Part shown: one piece after another, positions 1,066-41,974 of the stretch
Layout of the letters: each line of letters opens with the position of its first letter
How positions within the stretch are numbered: position 1 is the stretch's first letter
DNA from: Escherichia coli
GTDB taxonomy: Bacteria; Pseudomonadota; Gammaproteobacteria; Enterobacterales; Enterobacteriaceae
Direction: 5' to 3' (one strand)
Length of the DNA: 41,974 nucleotides
Assembly (NCBI GenBank): GCA_026712335.1
Contig: GCA_026712335.1_4695.1
The notes under the pieces: generated by a model
What the model was told of the DNA's origin: nothing
The model's database searches: none
The model's input: the letters and a program-made list of their open reading frames with translations, nothing else
Position numbers and translations under genes: made by a program

Positions 1066-1448
1066 CTCACGGTGACGCTACGTGAAATCTGAAAATACGG
1101 GAGGGTAGTTATGCTCAAGAATTTAAAGAGCTACGCCATAATCGCTGCGTTTGCCTTGGGTATTACCCTTGCGTATAACCACGGATATGACAAAGCTAAC
1201 ACTAAATGGGAACAGGAGGTGCACAATGAGTACGTTAAGAAANTAGTGGTCTTTATGATATTTCAACACAACTCACGGTGACGCTACGTGAAATCTGAAA
1301 ATACGGGAGGGTAGTTATGCTCAAGAATTTAAAGAGCTACGCCATAATCGCTGCGTTTGCCTTGGGTATTACCCTTGCGTATAACCACGGATATGACAAA
1401 GCTAACACTAAATGGGAACAGGAGGTGCACAATGAGTACGTTAAGAAA
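1038..1448. repeat. Direct duplicate 1038..1242 = 1244..1448 with N at 1243 (scaffold overlap)
   Basis: Read directly; duplicates the Rz start region. Confidence 0.9.
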
Positions 1449-1760
1449 GTTAAGGCGACTGAGGATAAACAGATTGCTATCAATGAAGTCTCACGACAAT
1501 ACCAAGAAGACCTTGCGGCGCTGGAAGGCAGCACTGATAGGGTCATTAATGATTTGCGTAACGATGGTAAGCGCTTGCGCGTCAAACTATCAGCCACCTC
1601 ACGAGAACTCCAAGCTAACGGTGGATGCCTCGTTGATGGTCGAGCCGAACTTGACGAAGAGTTTAGTAAGCGTCTTATCGGAGTAACTCAAAGAGGGGAT
1701 GCGTGGATTAAGGCGCTCCAAAATACAATAACTGAAATGCAATCTAAGAAGGAGAAATAA
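1317..1760 (+). CDS. 18.5: Rz-like spanin (inner-membrane subunit) gp18.5
   Basis: 147 aa; N-terminal TM helix; strong similarity to T7 gp18.5 (KWKQEVHNEYVK...YQEDLAALEGSTDR...GRAELD...GDAWI.ALQ.TI.E.Q); a duplicated start also at 1111. Confidence 0.9.
   Translation: MLKNLKSYAIIAAFALGITLAYNHGYDKANTKWEQEVHNEYVKKVKATEDKQIAINEVSRQYQEDLAALEGSTDRVINDLRNDGKRLRVKLSATSRELQANGGCLVDGRAELDEEFSKRLIGVTQRGDAWIKALQNTITEMQSKKEK
1432..1686 (+). CDS. 18.7: Rz1-like outer-membrane lipoprotein spanin gp18.7, embedded in Rz in the +1 frame
   Basis: Internal ATG of ORF 1357..1686 preceded by GGAGG; MSTLRKLR...WKAALIGSLMICV..SAC lipobox-like; matches T7 gp18.7 (SLMVEPNLT). Confidence 0.85.
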   Translation: MSTLRKLRRLRINRLLSMKSHDNTKKTLRRWKAALIGSLMICVTMVSACASNYQPPHENSKLTVDASLMVEPNLTKSLVSVLSE

Positions 1761-1761
1761 T

Positions 1762-2319
1762 ATGGCTACTACAAACTCAAGAACCCGCACACTATGGACC
1801 ATCAATGGTCGCTCGCCAGACAGTCGTGATGTGTATGACCTCAACAATATTGGTATTCGTGTTGGGCGTATCGACATCCCAGCTTCGGAGATGGTTAAGG
1901 TAGAGGGGTACTCTAAGGTTGAATACGTTGTTCAACTTAGCGATGGCACCACTGAGCAACATGCTACGTTCGAGACCCTTATGTCCACTTGGGGTGGCTC
2001 CGTCGAGTCTAAACCGGGTAGCGGGTTCATGACGGTGTTCCTGAATGAGCAAAGCGCTGAGCGACTCGGTATGGTTCGAATCGACGTATACAAAGAGTGG
2101 ACTGGTGCTGACCCTGAACCTGAAGGTGGTATGGCTTCCTTAGTTGGTGCAACGCTTTCTGCGTCTGATAGTGAATTTGGTACACAGTTCGTGGACAGCG
2201 AAGGGAAGAGCGCTTCCGTTATGTTCCAACCTAGTAACATCGACGGGGCTGTATCTAAGACCGACACTATCAAGGCTCTAGAGAAGCGCATTGCTGCCTT
2301 AGAGAAACCTGCCAAGTAA
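1762..2319 (+). CDS. Hypothetical protein (185 aa) between Rz and large terminase; no counterpart in T7 that I recall
   Basis: Clean ORF with strong RBS AAGGAG 8 nt upstream; TAATATG junction with Rz stop; no recognisable motif. Confidence 0.65.
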   Translation: MATTNSRTRTLWTINGRSPDSRDVYDLNNIGIRVGRIDIPASEMVKVEGYSKVEYVVQLSDGTTEQHATFETLMSTWGGSVESKPGSGFMTVFLNEQSAERLGMVRIDVYKEWTGADPEPEGGMASLVGATLSASDSEFGTQFVDSEGKSASVMFQPSNIDGAVSKTDTIKALEKRIAALEKPAK

Positions 2320-2334
2320 CAATAGGAGGCCACA

Positions 2335-4092
2335 ATGTCTACTCAAGCAAACAAGAATGCGCTCATCGTGGCGCAACTTAAGGGTGACTTCGTGGCCTTC
2401 CTGTTCGTCTTATGGAAGGCTCTGAACTTACCTAAACCAACCAAGTGTCAGATTGATATGGCACGTACACTCGCTAACGGCGACCACAAGAAGTTTATCC
2501 TTCAGGCGTTCCGTGGTATCGGCAAGTCCTTTATCACCTGTGCGTTCGTCGTGTGGGTCTTATGGCGAGACCCTCAACTTAAGGTTCTCATCGTGTCTGC
2601 CTCTAAGGAACGTGCTGATGCTAACTCCATCTTCATCAAGAACATCATCGACCTCCTTCCGTTCCTCTCTGAGTTGAAACCTCGACCGGGACAGCGTGAC
2701 TCCGTGATTAGCTTCGATGTTGGCTTGGCTAAACCCGACCACTCACCCTCTGTGAAGTCTGTAGGTATCACTGGTCAGTTAACTGGTAGCCGTGCTGACA
2801 TCATTATCGCAGATGACGTTGAGGTTCCCGGTAATAGCTCTACGAGTTCTGCTCGTGAGAAGCTCTGGACGTTGGTAACTGAGTTCGCTGCATTACTTAA
2901 GCCGCTGCCTACCTCTCGTGTTATCTACCTTGGCACACCTCAAACTGAGATGACGCTCTACAAGGAACTTGAGGATAACAAAGGGTACAGCACAGTAATC
3001 TGGCCAGCACAGTATCCACGTAATGACGCTGAGGCTCTCTATTATGGCGACCGACTGGCTCCTATGCTCAAGCAAGAGTATGATGAAGGCTATGAGTTAC
3101 TTCGCGGTCAACCTACTGACCCTGTTCGATTCGATATGGATGACCTCCGTGAACGTGAACTCGAATATGGTAAAGCTGGCTACACACTTCAGTTCATGCT
3201 TAACCCGAACCTTAGTGATGCCGAGAAGTACCCGCTACGACTCCGTGATGCTATCGTGTGCGCTGTGGACCCTGAACGTGCCCCATTGTCTTACCAGTGG
3301 TTGCCGAACCGTCAGAACCGCAATGAGGAACTCCCTAACGTTGGTCTGAAGGGTGACGACATCCATGCGTTCCATACGTGCTCTTCTCGTACCGCTGAGT
3401 ATCAGTCTAAGATTCTGGTCATTGACCCAAGTGGTCGTGGTAAGGATGAGACCGGGTACGCAGTCCTCTACTCACTTAATGGTTATATCTACTTGATGGA
3501 AGTCGGTGGGTTCCGTGGTGGTTACGATGATGCTACCCTAGAGAAGCTCGCTAAGAAGGCCAAGCAGTGGAAGGTACAGACAGTAGTCCACGAGTCCAAC
3601 TTCGGTGACGGTATGTTCGGTAAGATTTTCTCTCCGATTCTCCTGAAGCACCATAAGTGTGCCTTAGAGGAAATCCGTGCTAAGGGCATGAAGGAGATGC
3701 GAATCTGCGATACTATCGAACCGTTGATGGGTGCCCACAAGCTGGTCATTCGTGATGAGGTTATCCGTGAGGACTACCAGACTGCTCGTGACCTTGATGG
3801 GAAACATGATGTCCGCTACAGTGCGTTCTATCAGATGACCCGTATGACCCGTGAGCGAGGCGCTGTGGCACACGATGACCGCATTGATGCTATCGCATTG
3901 GGTATCGAGTTCCTTCGTGAAGGGATGCTTGTGGACAGCCGTGTAGGTGAAGAAGAGATGACCCTTGAGTTCCTTGAACACCACATGGAGAAACAGACCA
4001 TTGGTGGTGATGCTATCCATAGCTACGATGTTGGTGGCGTGGACATCTACTATGAGGATGATGGAGACTCTAGCTGCTTCATTGAGTGGTAA
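2335..4092 (+). CDS. 19: Terminase large subunit gp19
   Basis: 585 aa; near-collinear with T7 gp19; Walker A FRGIGKS; RBS AGGAGG. Confidence 0.97.
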
Positions 4093-4179
4093 TAGATAAG
4101 TATGCGGGAAAGGTGCATAGGTAAGCACTTAGTACCGCTACGTTACCGTTAAGTAACTTACTGATATACATGAAGAAAT

Positions 4180-4202
4180 TAATACGACTCACTATTGGGA
4201 AG
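4180..4202 (+). promoter_or_regulatory. Phage RNAP promoter (phiOR-like)
   Basis: TAATACGACTCACTATT GGGAAG; 17/17 to the internal consensus. Confidence 0.8.
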
Positions 4203-4358
4203 GGCACCCTAAGACAACTTAAAGACACTTAAAGACTGCATATGCAAAGTGCATACTTAGTGACTAACTCTTAGAGACCTTACAGTGAGGGATGATGGTA
4301 ATAGTAATTACATCCCTACTATCAGTGTAACCATCAAGTATAACAAGGAGGACGCTCT

Positions 4359-4514
4359 ATGCGCTTACTATCCGTGCTCAAGACACTGGCAACGCATCGA
4401 GTGACCTACAAATTTCTCGTTGTACTTGCTGCTTCCATTGGCCTCGCATCTAGTGCTGAACACATCGGTGAACTGGAGACTCTGCTTTGTTCTCTACTCA
4501 CTTGTGTTTCTTAG
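4359..4514 (+). CDS. Small hypothetical protein (51 aa), gene 19.5 position
   Basis: ATG with strong RBS AAGGAGG; downstream of phiOR-like promoter; below the ORF-track size cutoff. Confidence 0.5.
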   Translation: MRLLSVLKTLATHRVTYKFLVVLAASIGLASSAEHIGELETLLCSLLTCVS

Positions 4515-4589
4515 ACTACTCATTGGCGCTTAGTGCGCTCTTAGTGATTATGGTCGATATTCATCTTCCCTATAATCACTGTAAGAAGT

Positions 4590-5060
4590 CAACTCTAAGA
4601 GTAACCCTTATGTACCCTCTATGGTCTACAGGGTCTCTTAGGGTCTCTCACGTAGTCTCACCTTATGATATAGCCTCTGTGGTTAACCTTATGAGACTTG
4701 ATGTACCCCTTTAAGAATCCTACAGAAAAATCTGAGTGAGTATCTCATAGTTCATAAACACCGAGTCCCCCCCCCTATGGCCTCCTTCAGTCCACCCAAA
4801 GAGCCTTCCTCTATGGTAACTCATGGTTTACCTGAAGTCAATCCTTTTGTGAGACATTGGGTTAACTCTAGGTGTAACCACTAGATATTGTGCTTAGTGA
4901 TACCTTATGACCACTATATGTAGTCCTCTCTGTGTCCCTATCTGTAAGTGACCCTAGAGTTATCACCTTATGTCACCTCCTTATGTCTATCCTTATGGCT
5001 GCCTATCCTTATGTTAACCTTCAGTCAGTGCCTTATGTTTATCAGTGACCAATAGGCTTC
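4590..5060. repeat. Terminal-region array of CCTTATG heptamers (at least 8 copies), analogous to the CCTAAAG array at T7 ends
   Basis: Read directly: ACCTTATGA, CACCTTATG, TCCTTATG (x3), GCCTTATG etc.; noncoding; contains a T7 left-end-like motif TCTCATAG at 4743. Confidence 0.7.
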
Positions 5061-5443
5061 GTCACAAAGGGAAATCACTATCTCACTCTGTTTAGCAGTC
5101 CCTGNCCCCCCCCCTATGGCCTCCTTCAGTCCACCCAAAGAGCCTTCCTCTATGGTAACTCATGGTTTACCTGAAGTCAATCCTTTTGTGAGACATTGGG
5201 TTAACTCTAGGTGTAACCACTAGATATGGTGCTTAGTGATACCTTATGACCACTATATGTAGTCCTCTCTGTGTCCCTATCTGTAAGTGACCCTAGAGTT
5301 ATCACCTTATGTCACCTCCTTATGTCTATCCTTATGGCTGCCTATCCTTATGTTAACCTTCAGTCAGTGCCTTATGTTTATCAGTGACCAATAGGCTTCG
5401 TCACAAAGGGAAATCACTATCTCACTCTGTTTAGCAGTCCCTG
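4767..5443. repeat. Direct duplicate 4767..5104 = 5106..5443 with N at 5105, beginning at a C9 homopolymer (scaffold overlap or doubled terminal repeat)
   Basis: Read directly; copies differ by one SNP (T at 4889 vs G at 5228). Confidence 0.85.
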
Positions 5444-5516
5444 AGTGATGAGAGGGACAAGTAGAATCGACTGAGTGCCTATAGTGCCTTAAAGGTGGCT
5501 GATAGTCAATAGCCTT

Positions 5517-5539
5517 TAATGCGACTCACTATTGAGGAA
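5517..5539 (+). promoter_or_regulatory. Phage RNAP promoter-like element (phiOL-like, origin-associated)
   Basis: TAATGCGACTCACTATT GAGGAA; deviates at -13 and +2. Confidence 0.6.
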
Positions 5540-5570
5540 TAGCTAATACTGGTCATCCTCTCTTTATGTC

Positions 5571-5600
5571 CACTATAAGAGACTATAAGAGACTATAAGA
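5571..5600. repeat. Tandem 10-bp repeat (C/G)ACTATAAGA x3 downstream of the phiOL-like promoter
   Basis: Read directly; position corresponds to the T7 primary origin region. Confidence 0.7.
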
Positions 5601-5640
5601 CCACTTAAAGAGAGACTTTGAGATTCTTTAAGATTGAGGG

Positions 5641-5669
5641 TTGACATTGATAATAGCTTATGAGACTAT
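5641..5669 (+). promoter_or_regulatory. Putative host sigma70 early promoter (A1-like)
   Basis: -35 TTGACA at 5641; 17-nt spacer; weak -10 GACTAT. Confidence 0.45.
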
Positions 5670-5775
5670 AGCAACCGTTGAGAGACACAGCGCTACCAAC
5701 CACTAGACAAGACCTAGAGTTATCTGGTGAGGCGGGAATGTCTCAAGTAGTCATCAACCAGACACACGAAAGTGG

Positions 5776-5804
5776 TTGACTCAACGAAAGCAATAACGTA
5801 GTAT
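5776..5804 (+). promoter_or_regulatory. Putative host sigma70 early promoter (A2-like)
   Basis: -35 TTGACT, 17-nt spacer, -10 TAGTAT. Confidence 0.65.
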
Positions 5805-5814
5805 AGCAGTCGTC

Positions 5815-6267
5815 AACAACTGGTCGCCCTCTGAAACAACATGAGGTGTCACGGTGAGAAACAAAAGTAGTTGACAAGTAGCAACAACAAGATGTAAGAT
5901 GTACGACATAACGTTCTTGTGAAGTCCTACACTGAAAGGGACTCGGTGCTAACAAACCTGCACTTAAAGCTCTTTAACAATTTGGTGACAATAGCACTCT
6001 TGAGATGGCGGCACTAGCGATTAACTCAAGGTGACTCGAANAACAACTGGTCGCCCTCTGAAACAACATGAGGTGTCACGGTGAGAAACAAAAGTAGTTG
6101 ACAAGTAGCAACAACAAGATGTAAGATGTACGACATAACGTTCTTGTGAAGTCCTACACTGAAAGGGACTCGGTGCTAACAAACCTGCACTTAAAGCTCT
6201 TTAACAATTTGGTGACAATAGCACTCTTGAGATGGCGGCACTAGCGATTAACTCAAGGTGACTCGAA
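5815..6267. repeat. Direct duplicate 5815..6040 = 6042..6267 with N at 6041 (scaffold overlap)
   Basis: Read directly; duplicates the A3-like promoter. Confidence 0.9.
5871..5900 (+). promoter_or_regulatory. Putative host sigma70 early promoter (A3-like; duplicate copy at 6098..6127)
   Basis: -35 TTGACA, 18-nt spacer, -10 TAAGAT. Confidence 0.65.
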
Positions 6268-6292
6268 AGAGAAGCCTTTATGATAATCACTG
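6247..6292 (+). promoter_or_regulatory. Putative RNase III site (R0.3-like)
   Basis: AACTCAAGGTGACTC...GCCTTTATGATAATCAC hairpin, same family as T7 R0.3. Confidence 0.5.
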
Positions 6293-6315
6293 TAACCAAC
6301 ATCGAGGCAATCATC

Positions 6316-6774
6316 ATGATTCACACTAAAGAGCAAGCTAATGTTTTCTATGTACTGGTAAGCGCATTCCGTTCTAACCTCGACGATGAGGTCAACATGA
6401 GTCGCCACCGCCACATGGTTAACAACCTGCGCAACGCACCGGGTCTTTATGGTAGCGTTGAGTCTACCGATTTAACTGGCTGTTACCGCGAAGCCATCTC
6501 AAGTGCACCAACTGAAGAGAAAACAATCCGTGTACGTTGTAAAGACAAGGCACAGGTTCTCAATGTCGCACGTCTGGCATGTAATGAGTGGGAACAAGAT
6601 TGCGTGCTGGTCTATAAATCACAGACTCACACGGCTGGCTTAGTGTACGCTAAAGGCATCGACGGGTACAAAGCTGAACGTCTACATGGTAGCTTCCAAG
6701 AAGTCCCACGCACCGAGGCACTGAAAGGCTGCTTCACTATTGATGAGTTCGGTCGCCGCTGGCAAGTACAGTAA
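6316..6774 (+). CDS. 0.3: S-adenosylmethionine hydrolase/lyase (T3-type gene 0.3, anti-restriction)
   Basis: 153 aa from the internal ATG with RBS GAGG; strong match to T3 SAMase as recalled (ANVFYVLVSAFRSNL...YKSQTHTAGLVYAKGIDGYKAERL...FTIDEFGRRWQVQ); unrelated to T7 Ocr. Confidence 0.85.
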   Translation: MIHTKEQANVFYVLVSAFRSNLDDEVNMSRHRHMVNNLRNAPGLYGSVESTDLTGCYREAISSAPTEEKTIRVRCKDKAQVLNVARLACNEWEQDCVLVYKSQTHTAGLVYAKGIDGYKAERLHGSFQEVPRTEALKGCFTIDEFGRRWQVQ

Positions 6775-8491: not shown

Positions 8492-11354
8492 ATGACTAAC
8501 GTAATCAACGCACCAAAGAACGACTTCTCTGACATCGCTAACGCAATCATGCCATACAACATTCTGGCTGACCATTACGGCGCACAGCTTGCAGCTACGC
8601 AGTTACAGCTTGAGCACGAAGCGCACACCGAAGGCGAGAAGCGTTTTCTTAAGGCAATGGAACGTCAAATCAAAGCGGGTGAGTTCGGTGATAACGCAGT
8701 GGCTAAACCGCTCCTGTCATCTCTCGCACCGAAGTTTATCGAGGCGTGGAACGATTGGTTCACTGAAGTGGAAGCGAAGCGTGGCAAGCGTCCAGTAGCC
8801 TACAATCTGGTACAGAAGGTTGCACCTGAAGCTGCTGCATTTATCACACTGAAGGTCACACTCGCTTGCTTGACGAAAGAAGAGTTCACCAACCTGCAAT
8901 CGGTCGCCACTAAGATTGGTCGCAGTATTGAGGATGAACTGCGTTTTGGTCGCATCCGTGACGAAGAAGCGAAGCACTTTAAGAACCACGTACAGGAGGC
9001 ACTGAACAAGCGCGTTGGTATCGTCTACAAGAAAGCATTCATGCAAGCTGTAGAAGGCAAGATGCTTGATGCTGGTCAACTGCAAACCAAGTGGACCACA
9101 TGGACACCTGAAGAATCAATTCACGTTGGTGTGCGCATGTTGGAACTGCTCATTGGGTCTACTGGTCTCGTTGAGTTACACCGCCCGTTCGCTGGGAACA
9201 TCGAGAAGGATGGCGAGTACATCCAACTGACCGAACAATACGTTGACCTGTTATCTAAACGTGCTGGTGCACTGGCTGCAATCGCTCCAATGTATCAGCC
9301 TTGCGTGGTCCCACCTAAGCCTTGGACTTCTCCGGTCGGTGGTGGCTATTGGGCTGCTGGTCGCAAGCCTCTCTCTCTGGTTCGCACTGGTAGCAAGAAG
9401 GGACTTGAGCGTTACAACGATGTGTACATGCCTGAAGTTTACAAGGCCGTGAACATCGCACAGAATACTCCTTGGAAGATTAACAAGAAGGTTCTGGCAG
9501 TGGTCAACGAGATTGTGAACTGGAAGCATTGCCCGGTTGAAGATGTACCCGCTCTGGAACGTGGAGAACTCCCGGTCAAACCTGATGACATCGACACGAA
9601 CGAAGCGGCTCTGAAAGCGTGGAAGAAAGCGGCCTCCGCAATCTACCGCAAAGAGAAGGCACGAGTGTCACGCCGCATGAGCATGGAGTTCATGTTAGGT
9701 CAGGCCAATAAGTTCGCACAGTTCAAAGCTATCTGGTTCCCAATGAACATGGACTGGCGCGGTCGTGTGTATGNGAGAACTCCCGGTCAAACCTGATGAC
9801 ATCGACACGAACGAAGCGGCTCTGAAAGCGTGGAAGAAAGCGGCCTCCGCAATCTACCGCAAAGAGAAGGCACGAGTGTCACGCCGCATGAGCATGGAGT
9901 TCATGTTAGGTCAGGCCAATAAGTTCGCACAGTTCAAAGCTATCTGGTTCCCAATGAACATGGACTGGCGCGGTCGTGTGTATGCTGTGCCGATGTTTAA
10001 CCCGCAAGGCAACGACATGACCAAAGGCTTGCTGACGTTGGCTAAAGGTAAACCAATCGGTGTCGATGGGTACTACTGGCTGAAGATTCACGGTGCTAAC
10101 ACTGCTGGCGTGGACAAGGTGGACTTTGCAGAACGCATCAAGTTCATTGATGACAACCATGAGAACATCATGAGCGTTGCGGCTGACCCGATTGCTAACA
10201 CTTGGTGGGCCGAGCAAGATTCTCCGTTCTGCTTCCTCGCGTTCTGCTTCGAGTATGCAGGTGTGCAACACCACGGGATGAACTACAACTGCTCTCTTCC
10301 GCTGGCGTTCGATGGTAGCTGCTCCGGTATTCAGCACTTCTCCGCGATGCTCCGTGATGAGATTGGTGGTCGTGCGGTTAACCTGCTGCCAAGCAAAGAG
10401 GTACAAGACATCTACCGCATCGTAGCGGAACGTGTCAACGAGATTCTGAAGCAAGATGTAATAAATGGCACCGACAACGAAGTCGAAACCGTGACCAATA
10501 AGGACACAGGGGAAATCACTGAGAAGCTCAAGCTGGGCACGAAGGAACTGGCTGGTCAATGGTTAGCATACGGTGTTACTCGTAAGGAGACTAAGCGTTC
10601 CGTTATGACCTTGGCGTATGGTTCCAAAGAGTATGGCTTCCGTGACCAAGTGCTAGAGGATACAATTCAGCCAGCTATCGACGATGGCAAGGGCTTGATG
10701 TTCACTCAACCGAACCAAGCGGCTGGCTACATGGCTAAACTGATTTGGAACGCGGTAACGGTGACAGTGGTCGCTGCGGTTGAAGCAATGAACTGGCTGA
10801 AGTCTGCTGCTAAACTGCTGGCTGCTGAAGTCAAGGACAAGAAGACAAAAGAGGTTCTGCGCAAACGCTGTGCGGTACATTGGGTTACTCCTGATGGCTT
10901 CCCGGTCTGGCAGGAATACAAGAAGCCAGTACAGACACGCTTGAACCTGATGTTCTTAGGCCAGATTCGTCTACAGCCTACCGTGAACACCAACAAGGAT
11001 AGCGGAATTGATGCTCGTAAGCAGGAGTCAGGCATCGCACCTAACTTTGTCCACTCAATGGATGGTAGCCACCTGCGCATGACTGTGGTCCGCTCCAATG
11101 AGGTCTACGGTGTGGAATCGTTCGCACTGATTCACGACTCCTTTGGTACTATCCCTGCTGATGCTGGCAACCTGTTTAAAGCAGTGCGTGAAACGATGGT
11201 CAACACTTACGAAGAGAACGATGTACTTGCAGACTTCTATGAGCAATTTGCTGACCAGTTGCACGAATCACAGCTTGACAAGATGCCTGAGATGCCAGCT
11301 AAAGGTTCTCTGGACCTGCAAGAAATCCTTAAGTCAGACTTTGCGTTTGCCTAA
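8492..11354 (+). CDS. 1: Single-subunit DNA-dependent RNA polymerase gp1 (ORF split by duplication artifact 9564..9984; true length about 883 aa)
   Basis: ORFs 8492..9796 and 9765..11354 together are collinear with T7/T3 RNAP (PCVVPPKPW, WFPMNMDWRGRVYAV, ALIHDSFGT, C-terminal SDFAFA); removing one 211-bp copy restores frame. Confidence 0.97.
9564..9984. repeat. Direct duplicate 9564..9773 = 9775..9984 with N at 9774 inside the RNAP gene (scaffold overlap artifact)
   Basis: Read directly; copies identical; period 211 is not a multiple of 3. Confidence 0.92.
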
Positions 11355-32830: not shown

Positions 32831-35110
32831 ATGAGTAAGTTAGCTCAAGCATTGGGTAGCATGAATGCTCCGACTACCAGTCGTCTGCGTGGCACTGGTC
32901 GTATGGAAGTTAAGGCCGCAGCAGTCTATGAAGACCCTAAGTATGCCAAGAAGTCCGCACTGATTGGGACTGTGGGTAAACTTGCTGAGATGGGTGCGGA
33001 TGCCTATATGAAGTATGACCAGCACCAGAAGGACAAGGCAGACGAACGCTCAAACGAGATTATTCGTAAGCTGACTCCTGAACAACGCCGAGAGGCCATT
33101 AAGAATGGAACCCTGTTATATCAGGACGACCCATACGCAATGGAAGCACTTAAGGTGAAGACTGGTCGTAACGCTGCGTATCTCGTTGATGACGAGGTAG
33201 CACAGAAGGTTAAGAACGGTGAGTTCCGAACCCGTCAAGAGATGGAAGAGTTTCGTCATAGTCGCCTACAGGAATCCGCTAAGAATTATGCTGAACAGTT
33301 TGGTATCGACGAGACCGATGAGCACTACCAGAAGGGATTCAACTCTGACATCACCGAGCGTAACATTGCTCTCTATGGCGCTCATGATAACTTCCTGAGT
33401 GACCAAGCTAAGAAGGGTGCTGTCATCAACAGTCGCGTAGAGTTGAACTCCGTGTTGAACGACCCGGAAACCCTGCGCTCTCCGCATGCTGGTGAGTTCT
33501 TTGAGAACTACTTCAGTGCCGGATTGACTACAGGAAGTATCCCTAGTGATGACCAAGCGTTCACAATGATTAGCCAAGGTCTCTCTGACGTGGTTAACCG
33601 TGAGGGCGGTGGTCAGTTCCTGCAACAGATTGAGAACCGAAAGGTAAAACTGCATGGCAAGGAGACTACCTTCAAGGAACTGATGGGTGCCGAACAGTGG
33701 AACAATCTGATGGTTAAGGCTCAACATAATGAGTTCCAGTTGAATGCTAAGAAGACCGAGGCGTTCCAACTTAATGTGAACTCTGCGTTGAACCAAGAGA
33801 ACGTGAACACTGGCTGGGAACAGTTGCAATCCATAAAAGCTGAACTGGACACACTGCAACCGGGCGAAGAGATGACACCTGAACGTCAGGCGTTAATCAA
33901 TGCACAGACGCAGATGCAGGACAGGATGAAGCTGGAGACCGCTGAGTTAGCCAAGCAGATGGACAAGCAACAGAAGTCGATGAACAAGATGAACGTCATT
34001 GACGCACAGTTCCAGAAGCGGCTCAATGGTCAGTATGTGTCTACTGCGTATGGCGATATGCCTACCAACGAGAACACTGGTGAGTTCACCCATAGTGACA
34101 TGGTTAACTATGCGAACAAGAAGCTGGCTGACATTGACGCTATGGACATCCCTGATGCACAGAAGGACCGCATGAAGTTGGACTACCTCAAGGCTGACTC
34201 CGAGAAGGGCGCTTTCCGTACTGCGGTTGGTGAACTGATTGGTGACGCTGAGAAGGAATGGACGTCCGCTGTGATTAACGGGAAGATGCCAGAAGATGGT
34301 GGTGTGGCTCTTAATGCCCTGCGACGTGTTCGTAATGCTGACCCTGAGTTATTCGCTGCACTCTATCCTGATAAAGCCGAGATGTTCCTCACTATGGACA
34401 TGATGGACAACCAAGGGATTGACCCGCAGATTCTCTTAGATGCGGATAAGGCTCGTAAGTCTCTTACCAAAGAGATGCAGTACGAGGATGACAAGGCGTG
34501 GACTTCCCTGAAGAACAACTCCGAGTCTCCTGAACTGTCCCGTATGCCAGCTACATTGGATGCAGGTGCTCGTAAGATTTATGACTCCGTTAAGTACCGC
34601 ACAGGTAATGCTGATTCGGCAATGCAACAGGTCGATAAGTATCTCAAAGAGAACACAACGACTCTCACTGCTGATGACGTTGATGGTGATACCATTGGTG
34701 TCTTGACGAGAAACTCTTTGCGTGTGACTGATGACCCGGACTCTTGGAAACAAGGTAAGGACATTATCGACACAGCCGCTAAGAAACTCGCTGAGACTAA
34801 CCCTTGGGTTACTAACAAGCAACTCACTGTGTTCGAGCGTGGTGACTCTATCTACCTGATGGACACGACCGGACAGGTAAACATTCGGTATGACAAGCAG
34901 TTGCTCTCTAAGATGTATCAAGAGAACCAAGCGAAGCTGGATGAGGAAGCCCGTAATAAGGCACTCAAAGATGCCAACAAGCGAACCCTACATACACGAG
35001 CTATGAACCGCAAGCGTGAACGTGAAGCTAAGAAGCCTAAGCGCTCTGGCAGCATGTACGATAGCGTGAGTGGCAAAGGTATTCTGGATACGCTGACTGG
35101 TAAAGACTAA
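32831..35110 (+). CDS. 15: Internal virion protein C gp15
   Basis: 759 aa; position between gp14 and gp16; size close to T7 gp15 (747 aa). Confidence 0.9.
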   Translation: MSKLAQALGSMNAPTTSRLRGTGRMEVKAAAVYEDPKYAKKSALIGTVGKLAEMGADAYMKYDQHQKDKADERSNEIIRKLTPEQRREAIKNGTLLYQDDPYAMEALKVKTGRNAAYLVDDEVAQKVKNGEFRTRQEMEEFRHSRLQESAKNYAEQFGIDETDEHYQKGFNSDITERNIALYGAHDNFLSDQAKKGAVINSRVELNSVLNDPETLRSPHAGEFFENYFSAGLTTGSIPSDDQAFTMISQGLSDVVNREGGGQFLQQIENRKVKLHGKETTFKELMGAEQWNNLMVKAQHNEFQLNAKKTEAFQLNVNSALNQENVNTGWEQLQSIKAELDTLQPGEEMTPERQALINAQTQMQDRMKLETAELAKQMDKQQKSMNKMNVIDAQFQKRLNGQYVSTAYGDMPTNENTGEFTHSDMVNYANKKLADIDAMDIPDAQKDRMKLDYLKADSEKGAFRTAVGELIGDAEKEWTSAVINGKMPEDGGVALNALRRVRNADPELFAALYPDKAEMFLTMDMMDNQGIDPQILLDADKARKSLTKEMQYEDDKAWTSLKNNSESPELSRMPATLDAGARKIYDSVKYRTGNADSAMQQVDKYLKENTTTLTADDVDGDTIGVLTRNSLRVTDDPDSWKQGKDIIDTAAKKLAETNPWVTNKQLTVFERGDSIYLMDTTGQVNIRYDKQLLSKMYQENQAKLDEEARNKALKDANKRTLHTRAMNRKREREAKKPKRSGSMYDSVSGKGILDTLTGKD

Positions 35111-35133
35111 CAGACCACGATAGGAGGTTCCAA

Positions 35134-38100
35134 GTGGATAAGTATAACCCGAACGAATCGCATGAATATGATGCGTTATTTCAACAAGCTGCTGACACAC
35201 ATGGAGTCTCCTATGGCCTTCTTCGGAAGGTCGGTTGGGTAGAGTCCCGCTTTAAACCTACGGCTCAATCACCAACAGGGCCACGAGGTGTCATGCAGTT
35301 CACTAAGGCAACTGGTCAGGCTTATGGTCTCCAGAACGATGAGGACTTCGCTGACCCGGCTAAGTCCATTGATGCTGGTGCTCGTTACCTTGCAGACCTC
35401 GTTAAGAAATACAATGGGGATGAACTTAAAGCTGCCCTAGCGTACAACCAAGGTGAAGGGAGCAACGGTAAGCCACAACTGGAAGCCTACGATTCTGGTA
35501 ACTTTGCTGGCATCGGTGATGAAGGTCGTAACTATCTGCGTTCACTTCTGGATGTCGCTAAGTCACCTAAGAGTGGGGACATCGAGTCATTCGGTGGTAT
35601 CACCCCAAAGGGTAAAGGGATTCCGTTTGATGCTGCGATGAGTGGTATCGGGAAGAAAGGAAAGGTAACAACTGAACTCCCTGAGTCTCACGAAATGTCC
35701 TTTCAAGGTAAAGAACAGGCCGCTCCCAATCAGCCGTTCGGAAAAGATTATTGGGAAGCCAAAGGTACAACTCTTGACGAAGCAAACGAGCGTTCAACCT
35801 TCTTCGGATTCGGTAGTGCTGCTGAAGCAGAACTCTCAAACTCAACCTTGGGTGTTGCCTTCCGTGCTGGTAAGCGTGACAATGGTTTTGATGTGCTCAC
35901 TGATGTACTTCAACCGACACGGTTTAACAGCCACATTTGGTCGCCTGAAGAACTCGATAAGATTCGCAAAGAAGTGAAGAACCCTGCGTACATGAACGTT
36001 GTGCTTGGTGGTTCCGCTGAGAACCTTGACGAGCTAATCAAGATGGCTAATGAGAACTTCGAGTTGGACTCTAAGGCTGCTGATGCGGGTCTAGGTGCCA
36101 AGCTGTCTGCTGGTCTTATTGGTGCTGGTGTTGACCCGTTGACCTACGTTCCTATCGCTGGGACTGCGGCTAAAGGGTTCAAGCTGGTTAACAAGGCGTT
36201 GATTGTAGGTGCTCAAGCTGGTGCACTTAACGTTGCCTCTGAAGGTCTGCGTACATCGGTTGCTGGTGGTGATGCACATTATGCTGAAGCTGCCCTTGCT
36301 GGGATGTTACTGGCTGGTGGACTGACTTCTGTGGCAGATGGCGTTGCTGCGGGTCTCCGTAAGTCTGGTGCTGAACAGATTGAGAACCCCTTTGCTGCTG
36401 CACAGATGCGCTTTGAGACTCGTGAGACTGCACGTAACACTGGTGGTTATGACGCAAGCCGTATGCCTCCTAGTGAAGACCGAGTGTTCTCACAGCACAA
36501 CGGCGTTGAGTATGCACCACTGGAAACTGAACCGGGTGCTGTAGTGTTGCGTGATGGTTCCATTATCAGTGACACAAACTTGGCTAACCCGATGACAGCC
36601 AAAGAGTTCGAAGAAGTAGACCCTGAACGTGCTGCGTGGGGCTTGCCTATGCGTGGATTGAGTGAAATCGGCTTGAGGACTTTACGTTCTGAACATGCTG
36701 AAATCCGTGGTCTCGCTAAGGACTTAGTGCGTTCACCTACAGGTATGGAGTCAGGCTCACATGGTAAGTTTGGTTCCACTACATCGGACATCATAGAGCG
36801 ACTGCGCAGTCTCAATCATCGAACCTACAATAACCTATATGGTGCAATGAAGGAAGCGATGGCTGACCCTGAGTGGTCTGTTGGTATGTTCAAGAGTGGT
36901 GCTCAAGGTGCCCGTCAACAAATCTATCGTCGTACTAGTGAGGCTATCGAGAGACCTGAACTTCAGGCCAACTTGACCAAGGCAGAACGTAAGGTGATGG
37001 ACATCGTGAAGGAACACTATGACCTCAAGCGTGAGATGATGGAGAACCCGTCGATGTTCGGTAACAAGGCCACCTCTATCTTCCCTAACAGTCGTCACAA
37101 AGGGACTTACGTTCCTCATGTGTACTCACGGGAAGCCAAGCAGTTGTACTCACAGGCTCTTGGGGGCACTGATGGTTTACAGGAAGCAGTTGCTGCAAGC
37201 CTGATGGCATCATATCATGCACGCCCTGAAGTTAAGGCCCGTATTGATGAGATGCTGGCAGAGCAGTTACGGGTATCCAAACCAGCGGGTAAGACTGCGG
37301 GTACTACACCCAATAAGCCCTCTTCTGTCAACACAGCAAGTTACCAGATGAAACTGGACGATACAGCTACACAGGCAAGTGATAAGGTATTGGAACTAAA
37401 AGACGTCATGACCAACGCTGAGAAGCGAGTTGCGGACCGTGAAAGGAAACTCCAGAACTCCAAGGACAGACTGGCTTCGCATGAGGCTAAACTGAAGGAG
37501 TTGGAAGAAAAACTAGCTGCTAAACCTAATAGCAAAACCATTCCTGTTAAGATTGAGAGCCGGAAGCAGATGATTGAGACCCAGAAGTCTCACATCCGTA
37601 TTAACACAGAGCGTCTCGACTACATGAAAGGACAGGCTGCTAAGGTCCAAGACAGAATCACCAAAGCAACCGCCGAAGCTGAGGAAGCCGCCTCTGCTGC
37701 CAAAGGGCAGAAGACTACTGGTGGCGGTGAAGACACTATCGTTGGTGAAGCCACATCGGGTAATGCACCTCAATCAGTACAAGAGGTGACTATGGATATG
37801 GTCGAGAAGTACGCTATGGACAAGGCTTACGGTATTACGAAGACCGATGAGTTCAACTCTTCAAGTGTCATTGACGATAACATTGAGGGTCTCGTTGGGA
37901 TTGAGAACAACTCATTCCTTGAAGCCCGTAACCTGTTTGATTCTGACGTGCCAATCACTCTACCGAACGGGCAACAGTTCTCTGTGAATGACCTCCGTGA
38001 CTTCGATATGAAGCATGTGATGCCAGCATATGACCGCCGTGTTGATGGTGATATTGCTATCATGGGAGGCACAGGTAAGACTACTGCTGAACTCAAGGAC

Positions 38101-39782
38101 GCTATTATGGCTCTTGATAAGAAGTCTGAAGGTAAAGGTACAATGAAAGGTGAAGTGGAAGCACTTAAGGATGTCGTTAAGATTGNGTGAATGACCTCCG
38201 TGACTTCGATATGAAGCATGTGATGCCAGCATATGACCGCCGTGTTGATGGTGATATTGCTATCATGGGAGGCACAGGTAAGACTACTGCTGAACTCAAG
38301 GACGCTATTATGGCTCTTGATAAGAAGTCTGAAGGTAAAGGTACAATGAAAGGTGAAGTGGAAGCACTTAAGGATGTCGTTAAGATTGTCACTGGTCGTG
38401 CTCGACGCAATCAGGATACTGTAGGTGACACTATGGTCCGTGCTCTGTCCGATATGTCCTTCTTCACGAAGAACGCATATATGGGCTTGCAGAACCTAAC
38501 CGAAATCTCCGGTATGTTGCAGAAGGGTAATATCCGTGCGATGCTTCATGGCATTCCGGTACTGCGTGACTTAGCGTTCCGCAACAAGCCAGTCTCTGGT
38601 AGTGAACTCAAAGAACTCCACTCTATGGTGTTCGGTAAAGAGTTTGATGACTTAGTCCGACCTACTCGTCAAGACATCATTCAGCGACTCCGTGAGTCCA
38701 CTGATACACCTGATGTTGCCGCAAAGGTTGTTGGTTCTATCAAGCACACAACTCAAGAACTGGCGGCTCGCTCACCTCTCACCAAGTTCCTCAATGGTAC
38801 GTCAAACTACCTTCTGGACATGGCCCGACAGGGTGTGATGGGTGATGTGGTAACTCATGCTATCACTGGAAAGGGTGCCAACAAGTGGATTAAAGGTGAC
38901 ATGTTGAAGTCTGCGAGTATCTCTAAGGAACAGTGGGAAGGCATTCAGGCTCTCATCCGTGAGAACGTTACCCGTGGGGAAGATGGTAAGTTTACCTTCA
39001 AGGATAAGAAGGCTCTGGCTAATGACCCTCGTGCTATGGACTTGTGGCGTTTGGCTGACAAGGTTGCTGATGAAACGATGCTTCGACCTCATAAGGTTTC
39101 CTTACAGGATTCCCATGCGTTTGGTGCCACCGCTAAGTTAGTCCTTCAGTTTAAGTCGTTTGTCATCAAGTCGATGAACTCTAAGTTTATCCGCTCCGGT
39201 CACGAAGCCTTTAAGAACCAGCGTGCTATGGACATGGCGCTGACCTATGCAATCTCTGGTGGTATCGCTGGCTCCTACTATGTGGCACAGGCCCACTTGA
39301 AGGCTGCTGGTCTTCCTAAAGAGCAACAGAAGGATTACTTGAAGAAAGCTCTCGACCCGAAGATGATTGCCTACGCTGCGGCCTCCCGAAGTTCACACTT
39401 AGGGTCGCCTCTGAGTATCGCTAACTTCGCTATGGGTGCTGCTGGTTACGACCAAGGTCTTATGGTTCGCTCTACGATTCTACCGAAAGGTGATGACAAG
39501 CGTGAGCGCAACAAGGCGGTGACTTCTCGTGACATGGGTGATTCCATTATGGGCGCTATTGGTGAACAGGTTCCTGCTCTTGGCTTCGCTGGTGCTGCTC
39601 TAGCTACTGGTCGAAATGCTTATGGTGTCCTTACGGCTCCTAACAAACCGACCGAGCGTGAGATGATGACTGGCTTAATGAATGCTCACCGAGAGATGAT
39701 TCCTAACGATCCAATCTCTCAACAGATGCTCATTAAGTTCTATGAGGCCAACGGTGTTCACATTAAGGCTGACAAGAAGTAA
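35134..39782 (+). CDS. 16: Internal virion protein D gp16 with N-terminal lytic transglycosylase domain (ORF split by duplication artifact 37984..38388; about 1481 aa after de-duplication; GTG start)
   Basis: ORFs 35134..38190 and 38187..39782 together are collinear with T7 gp16; SLT motifs ESRF...MQFTKAT...AYNQGEG; C-terminus YEANGV; removing one 203-bp copy restores frame. Confidence 0.95.
37984..38388. repeat. Direct duplicate 37984..38185 = 38187..38388 with N at 38186 inside gp16 (scaffold overlap artifact)
   Basis: Read directly; copies identical; period 203 is not a multiple of 3. Confidence 0.92.
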
Positions 39783-39854: not shown

Positions 39855-41780
39855 ATGGCTAACAAAATTTCCACTGTACGTACTTACCCGCTGAACGGTG
39901 CCGTGAACTTCACGATTACCTTTGAGTATTTAGCACGTAAGTTCGTCCAAGTGACACTCATCGGGAAAGACCGTAAAGAGTTGGTTCTCAATCAGGACTA
40001 TCGCTTTACCACTAAGACCCAAATCACAACCTCCCGTGCGTGGACTGCTGCCGATGGTTATCAGATGATTGAGATTCGTCGATTCACTTCTGCAACCGAC
40101 CGTCTGGTTGACTTTGCTGATGGCTCAATCCTTCGTGCGTATGACCTTAACATCTCACAGATTCAGACGCTGCACGTAGCTGAAGAGGCACGAGACCTAA
40201 CTGCGGATACCATTGGTGTCAACAATGATGGTCACTTGGATGCCCGTGGTCGTAAGATTGTGAACCTAGCGTTCGCTACCAGTGACTACGATGCTGTCCC
40301 TCTGAAGCAAGTAAAAGAGCGCGAGTCGTCTGCTTGGAACGCTGTTAACAAGGCCAATGAACACGCTAACCGCTCTAACACTGAGGCTAACCGATCGCGA
40401 GATGAAGCTGACCGTGCAAAACGTGAAGCTGACCGCTCAACCCAACAGGCAGGTGTCTCTACGGCACAGGCGGTTGAGTCCAAGAAGCAAGCTGACCGTT
40501 CCAACTCTGAGGCTAACCGAGCTAAAGGTTATGCTGATAGTATGACCGCAAGTGTAGCTGAGGCCAAGAAGCAAGCTGACCGTTCTAACTCTGAGGCCAA
40601 TCGTGCCCGTGATGAGGCCAATCGTGCTGCCGGAGAAGTGACTAAGGCTGCTGCTGAGGTTGCCAAAGCCGCTGCACACGTTGCTACCGCTGATGGACAT
40701 GCTGACAGAGCCAACACTGAGGCAAACCGCTCCAAGAGTGAAGCTGACCGTGCAAAGACCGAGGCTGACAAGTTAGGGAATATGAATAACTTAGCGGGAA
40801 CCATTAAAGCGGTTAATGGTGAGAACGTTGTTTTTAAGAATGATGTTGTAGCACCCGGACAGATTACTGGTGAAAAGGAAGTAAGGGCTGGCGCAGGTCA
40901 ATCGTTTAGCGTGTTAACAAGGAACTCGTTGCAGCTTGTGAACCAGAACTTCGCTGATAGAAATATGAGGTTCTTCGTATGGGGGAATGACCAAGGACGT
41001 GCAAACGTATTTGAGTTAGGTGGTAGCGGTAATGGGTACTATATGTATATCCAGAAGGCTAACCTTAACGACACATTTTGCCAGATGCGAGTGAATGGAC
41101 ATATGGAGGCTGCTGGTGGGCTTACGGTTGGACAATCAGGTGACTTCACTGGAATCTTACAGACTCGCTCACAGAACCTGCTGATGATTAACTCTGCTCG
41201 TCGACATATTCAAATGAAAACCAGCGATAACTACACCGATGGTTATCTTTACAAAGACCCCGGCGCTGGGGCGTGGAGGCTTAACTTTGGTCAGGCAGCT
41301 AACAGGGAGTATACGTTTGATTCAAATGGTACATTAACATCCAACTCAGGCTGGTACATTCCACCAGATGGTAACTTATACATCACGAAGTATGATTCTT
41401 ACATCGACGGTTGGGTCAACAAACGCCTTGGAGAACATGCCTACAATAAAAGCGAAGTAAACAACCTAGTCAATGGACGGTTAACTCAAGCGCAAGCTGA
41501 TGGTCGATACGTCAATAAGAATGCTGGGTGGGCTGAGGTCTGGAAAGGCTCTGCTGGTGGTGGTGTCTCGGTAGGTCTCTCACAGGATGTTCGTTGGAGA
41601 ACCATCTGGATTCAGACCAATGGTCGCTGGAACGCCGTTCCTATTGGTGACAATGCGGCTTACTTCATCTCGTCTGCTGGTGGTTGGTTGAAGTTCACAA
41701 TCTCCAACAACGGCAGAACTTTCCGTAACGACAAAGACGACCGTTCAGTCCCTACGCGAATCTTAGTTCAAAACCAATAA
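39855..41780 (+). CDS. 17: Tail fiber protein gp17 (641 aa, with expanded central repeat region)
   Basis: N-terminal domain FEYLARKFV.VTLIG.DRK...DGSILRAYDLN..QIQT.HVAEEARDLT.DTIGVNNDGHLDARGR.IVNLA and C-terminal tip match T7 gp17. Confidence 0.96.
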   Translation: MANKISTVRTYPLNGAVNFTITFEYLARKFVQVTLIGKDRKELVLNQDYRFTTKTQITTSRAWTAADGYQMIEIRRFTSATDRLVDFADGSILRAYDLNISQIQTLHVAEEARDLTADTIGVNNDGHLDARGRKIVNLAFATSDYDAVPLKQVKERESSAWNAVNKANEHANRSNTEANRSRDEADRAKREADRSTQQAGVSTAQAVESKKQADRSNSEANRAKGYADSMTASVAEAKKQADRSNSEANRARDEANRAAGEVTKAAAEVAKAAAHVATADGHADRANTEANRSKSEADRAKTEADKLGNMNNLAGTIKAVNGENVVFKNDVVAPGQITGEKEVRAGAGQSFSVLTRNSLQLVNQNFADRNMRFFVWGNDQGRANVFELGGSGNGYYMYIQKANLNDTFCQMRVNGHMEAAGGLTVGQSGDFTGILQTRSQNLLMINSARRHIQMKTSDNYTDGYLYKDPGAGAWRLNFGQAANREYTFDSNGTLTSNSGWYIPPDGNLYITKYDSYIDGWVNKRLGEHAYNKSEVNNLVNGRLTQAQADGRYVNKNAGWAEVWKGSAGGGVSVGLSQDVRWRTIWIQTNGRWNAVPIGDNAAYFISSAGGWLKFTISNNGRTFRNDKDDRSVPTRILVQNQ

Positions 41781-41826
41781 GGACAACATATAGACCACGG
41801 ATGGTCTCAACAATAAGGAGGACACA

Positions 41827-41974
41827 ATGTTGTCTTTAGATTTTAACAACGAGGTAGTGAAGGCTGCACCGATTGTAGGGACAGGCGTAGCCGATGGTGC
41901 TGCCCGTCTGTTCTTCGGCCTGTCACTCAACGAGTGGTTCTATGTAGCCGCAATTGCCTACACAGTGGCTCAAA
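41827..41974 (+). CDS. 17.5: Holin gp17.5, 5' fragment (wrap-around copy of 544..691)
   Basis: Identical to the start of ORF 544..750; window ends inside the gene. Confidence 0.85.
   Translation, partial: MLSLDFNNEVVKAAPIVGTGVADGAARLFFGLSLNEWFYVAAIAYTVAQ

Follow-up and report, generated by a model that had tools for sequence, protein, structure and literature searches.

The DNA of T7-group phages replicates as concatemers in which adjacent units share one copy of the terminal repeat. When sequence records are compared exactly from end to end, this repeat measures 160 bp in T7 and 194 bp in BA14, and in both phages its boundaries take the form ...GAGTGnnTA/TCTCAYAG on the left and ...CTCTCTGTGTCCCT/ATCTGT on the right (slashes mark the boundaries). 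Primer walking to the ends of virion DNA has been used to check the termini of Kvp1, whose repeats are 194 bp long (PMC2579914).

Here we describe the corresponding region of a phage genome contained in a stretch of DNA of 41,974 nucleotides, which was analysed at its full length and is called the window below. The genome is that of a Berlinvirus (Autographiviridae, Studiervirinae), a T7-group podovirus, and the record gives it in circularly permuted form. Its identity over 24 kb is 96.4% with the Enterobacter phage PZJ0206, 95.3% with 285P and 93.8% with BA14. It is highly probable that this record is a Berlinvirus assembly in permuted circular form, in which positions 4743-4939 represent a direct terminal repeat of ~197 bp, present as one collapsed copy, and in which a 338-bp duplicate close by is a contig-overlap artefact. 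The parts of this reading that sequence comparison supports directly are the homology of both repeat boundaries, together with the surrounding order of genes and promoters, and the artefactual nature of the duplicated blocks that surround each undetermined base (N) in the window.

Assembly layout and duplicated blocks

Single Ns occur at six positions of the window (340, 1243, 5105, 6041, 9774 and 38186), and every one of them sits between two copies of one sequence, a layout that we write as X-N-X. The blocks measure 225, 205, 338, 226, 210 and 202 bp, respectively, with 2, 0, 1, 0, 0 and 0 mismatches between the two copies. The ends of the window are redundant as well. Its last 351 bases (41624-41974) are an exact repeat of 341-691, and the segment 1-339 equals 41510-41848 save for two SNPs (141 G/A and 168 A/C), this 339-nt first segment being a redundant short contig. 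The repeat at the window ends, taken with the X-N-X joins, therefore identifies the window as seven overlapping contigs laid end to end, which close into a circle of ~39,871 bp.

A preliminary description of this DNA had pointed out the motif TCTCATAG at 4743, a C9 run, a 338-bp duplicate that starts at this run and a single difference between its copies (4889 T vs 5228 G), all of which are present. It had also mentioned five other duplicates, and these too exist, with an identical X-N-X layout around the Ns at 340, 1243, 6041, 9774 and 38186.

Comparison with relatives reveals one copy at each join. At all six, the two copies and the sequence on their outer sides align to a single, overlapping stretch in both BA14 and PZJ0206, and S523 covers query positions 4300-5900 with 1258 bp, compared to 1601 bp in the query. 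As the sequence is written, no open reading frame crosses 9774 or 38186: the insertions there, of 211 and 203 nt, are not divisible by three and shift the frame of the genes for RNA polymerase and gp16, respectively. When the N and the second copy are removed, an 883-aa RNA polymerase reading frame and a 1428-aa gp16 reading frame are restored. This frameshift argument covers the joins at 9774 and 38186 and is inapplicable to the join at 5105, which lies in non-coding DNA and where duplicate and N together amount to 339 nt. Thus, three features expected of contig-overlap artefacts are found: the X-N-X layout at six of six Ns, one copy per join in BA14 and PZJ0206 and, around 5105, in S523, and duplicates that are biologically untenable if taken literally.

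The 338-bp duplicate accordingly falls among these blocks by its layout, with 4767-5104 recurring at 5106-5443 around the single N at 5105. Judged from these comparisons, it is an unmerged contig overlap and not a terminal repeat, and it is unrelated to the mechanism that would form the ends. One contig ends at 5104 and the next starts at the C9 run, and the two were strung together across an N where they should have been merged, as happened at the five other joins.

With a genuine tandem duplication of the block, the genome would carry two right-end cut sites and most of the repeat twice, with ...CAGTCCCTG (...GCAGTCCCTG) running directly into CCCCCCCCCTATGG. Such an insertion of non-coding DNA (339 nt with the N) would not be lethal by frameshift, and the copies do differ at one base. 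However, the N lies exactly between the copies, five other joins have the same layout, with essential genes lost at two of them if the duplication were real, and every relative that spans the region has a single copy. Copy 2 and three relatives agree at the one differing base and leave copy 1 as a singleton, a pattern that would be expected if an error or minor variant lay close to the end of a contig. A true duplication is therefore most improbable.

Specifically, the sole mismatch between the two copies of the 338-bp block is 4889 T vs 5228 G, and G is found at the equivalent of 4889 in copy 2, PZJ0206, D226 and RN5i1, which leaves the T of copy 1 alone. The simpler reading of these alignments is that 4889 T may be an end-of-contig error or a minor variant. 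We also considered whether this SNP could mark the left versus the right copy of a repeat, and rejected the idea because G is common to copy 2 and the three relatives and because mismatches (2 in 225 bp) also separate the copies around 340.

To find an independent assembly of this phage, IMG/VR, metagenome contigs and GTDB genomes were scanned for exact matches to patterns of 24 and 34 nt, but none was found in these collections. In the same searches by exact pattern, the right edge of the 338-bp block had no match, and the left-end pattern matched only BP12A-like and Kvp1-like contigs.

Boundaries of the inferred terminal repeat

Position 4743 of the window aligns with base 1 of T7, T3 and BA14, and Kvp1 was deposited starting one base in. 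The resemblance to the T7 left end that the preliminary description had recognized is therefore real. Some ten records start at the equivalent of 4743 or one base off (JSS1, JSS2, vB_CECAV_058, Kvp1, pO103, LPST144, FE44, PP74, PcCB251 and Sarma103). On the other side, position 4939 (...GTGTCCCT) corresponds to the final base of T7, of BA14 and of several other relatives. Records ending within one base of this position are those of LPST144, LPST153, FE44, PcCB251 and Kvp1, while BSP161 stops ~3 nt short of it and PYPS50 1 nt short. At both boundaries the window has the same form as T7 and BA14, reading AAAAATCTGAGTGAGTA/TCTCATAG and CTCTCTGTGTCCCT/ATCTGTA.

The two motifs differ in what they can tell when taken alone. 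Because the 8-mer TCTCATAG by itself is without significance (2 matches in the window vs 1.46 expected), the argument for the termini rests on alignments of all 197 bp, and of the sequence on either side, with the mapped termini of relatives. For CTCTCTGTGTCCCTATCTGT, which is located at 4926-4945 and occurs a second time at 5265-5284 in the duplicate, no chance match is expected. This second motif, ...CTCTCTGTGTCCCT/ATCTGT, had been missed as a boundary by the preliminary description, and its alignment indicates that the repeat ends here on the right and gives way to the concatemer-junction motif.

The homology of the boundaries at 4743 and 4939 delimits an inferred repeat of 197 bp, and what is found at this locus agrees with a direct terminal repeat of the Studiervirinae in its left boundary, its right boundary, its location and its flanking heptamer arrays. 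We infer that the physical ends of the virion DNA lie at 4743 and 4939 and that the stretch between them would be duplicated at both ends of this DNA. The earlier suggestion of a probable physical terminus thus gains support from homology to the mapped ends of relatives. In the window, the single copy of the repeat with right-end unique sequence running straight into it is the concatemer-junction form expected from a circular assembly.

The window itself is without the mark of an end, and the assembly is circular, so one might argue that the DNA ends at other places or at variable ones, and that common ancestry alone accounts for the likeness to the termini of relatives. Against this stands the conservation of both boundary motifs and their outer flanks as far as T7, which belongs to another genus, as well as the presence of a T7-type terminase, phiOR and phiOL, all in canonical order. 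We give this possibility very little credence.

A further alternative holds that the 338-bp block itself is the direct terminal repeat, with a linear genome, repeated at both ends, joined head to tail in the record and the true ends located at 4767, where the C run starts, and at 5104/5443. The block does lie in the terminal region, where it overlaps most of the homologous repeat, and the PZJ0206 record was deposited with a terminal redundancy that also begins at the C run. However, the edges of the block do not coincide with the conserved termini, as it starts 24 nt downstream of 4743 and ends 165 nt past 4939, with its right edge in a non-conserved stretch. Moreover, its layout is identical to that of five joins that cannot be terminal repeats, and the ends of over ten relatives, in some cases checked by experiment, are at the equivalents of 4743 and 4939. 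There is hardly any likelihood that this account is correct. Of the two interpretations of the duplicate put forward in the preliminary description, contig-overlap artefact thus stands, on account of the six X-N-X joins, the one copy in relatives and the restored reading frames, whereas direct terminal repeat falls because 4767 and 5104 are not 4743 and 4939.

Genes, promoters and heptamer arrays around the repeat

The features of the region are collected in Table 1. Their order (gene 19, phiOR, gene 19.5, repeat, phiOL, host promoters, gene 0.3) is the canonical order of the T7 group. The terminase encoded by gene 19 is the enzyme that we take to cut at the boundaries of the repeat.

Table 1. 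Features of the terminal region and the two contigs that meet in it, with positions in the window.
Feature	Position	Strand	Description
Contig 3	1244-5104		3′ end is copy 1 of the 338-bp block
Gene 19, terminase large subunit	2335-4092	+	585 aa; Pfam Terminase-T7_RNaseH-like, E = 8e-40; length as BA14 gp19
phiOR-type phage RNA polymerase promoter	~4178-4200	+	CGACTCACTA at 4185-4194; matches annotated BA14 phiOR base for base; reads towards the repeat
Gene 19.5 homologue	4359-4514	+	51 aa; last gene before the right end; position and length as in BA14 and Kvp1
Right-end CCTTATG array	4606-4693	+	Three heptamers, left of the repeat
Inferred direct terminal repeat	4743-4939	+	197 bp, one collapsed copy; both boundaries from alignment with relatives
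Left-terminus motif TCTCATAG	4743-4750	+	Conserved AAAAATCTGAGTGAGTA just before; flank and motif kept in T7 and BA14
C9 homopolymer	4767-4775	+	24 nt inside the repeat; start of contig 4
Copy 1 of the 338-bp block	4767-5104		End of contig 3; continuous with genuine upstream sequence; 4889 T is the odd base
Sigma-70-like site	4813-4841	-	Leftward, inside the repeat; TTGACT, 17 nt, TACCAT; 9/12 in consensus scan
Right boundary of the inferred repeat	4926-4946	+	...CTCTCTGTGTCCCT, predicted cut after 4939, then ATCTGTA
Left-end CCTTATG array	4966-5037	+	Five heptamers, right of the repeat
N and copy 2 of the 338-bp block	5105-5443		Start of contig 4; redundant and artefactual; deletion restores the true sequence
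Contig 4	5106-6040		5′ end is copy 2 of the 338-bp block; begins at the C9 run
phiOL-type phage promoter	~5515-5537	+	Aligns with annotated BA14 promoter
Host (sigma-70) early promoters, A series	5776-5804 and 5871-5900	+	Host promoters are also annotated in this region of BA14
Gene 0.3, SAM lyase/hydrolase	6280-6774	+	First left-end gene; Pfam S-AdoMet_lyase, E = 1e-42

The heptamer CCTTATG has 21 matches in the window, compared to 3.6 expected, and 15 of the 21 fall within 4606-5376, including one inside the repeat. The second of the host promoters is artefactually duplicated at 6098-6127 by the join at 6041. The leftward sigma-70-like site may, tentatively, be the counterpart of the A0 promoter of T3 and T7, as T3 carries an annotated leftward A0 inside its own repeat at roughly the same position.

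Two observations were made outside the terminal region. Imperfect direct repeats of 61-77 nt are present at 40351-40769, with spacings that are multiples of 21 nt (21, 84, 126 and 210). With a phage promoter upstream of them at ~39789, they are presumably located in the tail-fibre gene 17, and they suggest a peptide motif with a phase of seven residues. Also, gp16 (~34,700-39,200, across the join at 38186) has 1428 aa once the join is collapsed, compared to 1315 aa in BA14 and 1481 aa in PZJ0206, and therefore the size of this internal virion protein varies within the genus.

The C run as an assembly breakpoint

The C9 run is, besides its duplicate at 5106-5114, the only C or G homopolymer of at least seven bases in the window. 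Among relatives the run varies in length from C5 to C9, with C5 in BA14, C6 in Kvp1 and D226, and C9 in PZJ0206. Two public records break at this place. The PhiV-1 record (MT542512.1) starts and ends inside the run, beginning with CCCCCCCCTATGG and ending with ...GTGTTTCCCCCCCC. The PZJ0206 record (MT625440.1), read as its reverse complement, begins at the run and has an exact terminal redundancy of 392 bp (1-392 and 40135-40526), which is not the homologous ~197-bp repeat and is probably an assembly overlap. The chance that a random cut in a 40-kb genome hits a 9-nt target is ~2e-4, and the breaks of PhiV-1 and PZJ0206 therefore mark the run as a recurrent cause of assembly breaks. By extension, we infer that it also caused the contig break in the window.

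The start of contig 4 is located only 24 nt from the inferred left end, and a tie between the two was considered. It was rejected in favour of the homopolymer, given that PhiV-1 and PZJ0206 break in the C run and not at TCTCATAG.

The breaks could also have a biological source. The C run may be truly variable in length within the phage population, either from genome to genome or from one repeat copy to the other, by slippage during duplication of the repeat at packaging, so that heterogeneity and not sequencing chemistry would explain the breaks in three independent Berlinvirus assemblies, and 4889 T/G could likewise be a real polymorphism. We regard this as unlikely.

Proposed formation of the ends

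Immediately past the repeat, at 4940-4946, the window reads ATCTGTA, as do BA14 and Kvp1, while T7 and T3 have ATCTGTT. In BA14 the homologous bases CTATCTGT are annotated as ‘concatemeric junction’. ATCTGTT on the non-template strand is the class II pause motif of T7 RNA polymerase and is reported to be intolerant of any base change (bioRxiv 10.1101/2021.01.11.426313). By this strict definition the site at 4940-4946 falls short of the motif, as it matches six of the seven bases, although the strictness was reported for the T7 enzyme and not for the cognate Berlinvirus polymerase. The position is that of a class II site, at the right edge of the repeat and co-oriented with transcription from phiOR. 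Either Berlinvirus polymerases accept the ATCTGTA variant, or pausing differs from that at ATCTGTT. That this phage’s own polymerase would pause at ATCTGTA is an assumption.

If end formation resembles that of T7, transcription from phiOR would proceed through gene 19.5 into the repeat and pause at the junction motif past 4939. Terminase (gp18/gp19) would then cut to yield a right end ...GTGTCCCT (4939) and the next left end TCTCATAG (4743). Copying of the repeat during maturation would leave both ends of each virion DNA with a repeat, and the virion genome would measure ~39,871 + 197 = 40,068 bp.

Implications for the record

The whole of this region is known T7-group biology plus a curation problem. 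The record can be corrected by deleting 340-565, 1243-1448, 5105-5443, 6041-6267, 9774-9984 and 38186-38388. Re-opening the resulting sequence at 4743 and closing it with a second copy of 4743-4939 would then give the virion genome of ~40,068 bp. Without this correction, artefacts make the genes for RNA polymerase and gp16 seem frameshifted, and an A-type promoter and a packaging cut site are each falsely shown twice. Curators should also be aware that breaks at the C run recur in public Berlinvirus records, and that a deposited terminal redundancy, such as the 392 bp of PZJ0206, is not necessarily the biological repeat.

Comparison with known systems

As is usual for unmerged contig overlaps in draft or scaffolded assemblies, the blocks described here consist of two contig-end copies around a placeholder N, at every join, with an overlap length that varies (202-338 bp) and occasional mismatches near contig ends. 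The join at 5105 differs from the other overlaps only in having its left edge at a homopolymer that also breaks two public assemblies.

The inferred repeat closely resembles those of other Berlinvirus members (BA14, Kvp1, PZJ0206 and vB_Eco_D226), which likewise lie between gene 19.5 and phiOL, begin with TCTCATAG, end with ...CTCTCTGTGTCCCT/ATCTGTA and are accompanied by CCTTATG arrays. Identity over 4767-4939 is 99.4% with PZJ0206 and 98.8% with D226. The differences from these relatives are slight, with a length of 197 bp instead of 194 bp and few substitutions, although, to the right of the repeat, divergence sets in after ~100 nt.

The likeness to T7 is concentrated at the edges. The boundaries AAAAATCTGAGTGnnTA/TCTCAYAG and CTCTCTGTGTCCCT/ATCTGT are conserved on both sides, a C run lies ~25 nt from the left end, and phiOR and phiOL flank the repeat. 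Arrays of the heptamer CCTAAAG reportedly flank the T7 repeat, and the CCTTATG arrays parallel them with a different heptamer. In contrast, the repeat is 197 bp here and 160 bp in T7, and the interiors are largely unalignable. Finally, the base that follows ATCTGT is A here and T in T7, and the palindrome CCCCCATAGGGGG of T7 is absent from this locus.
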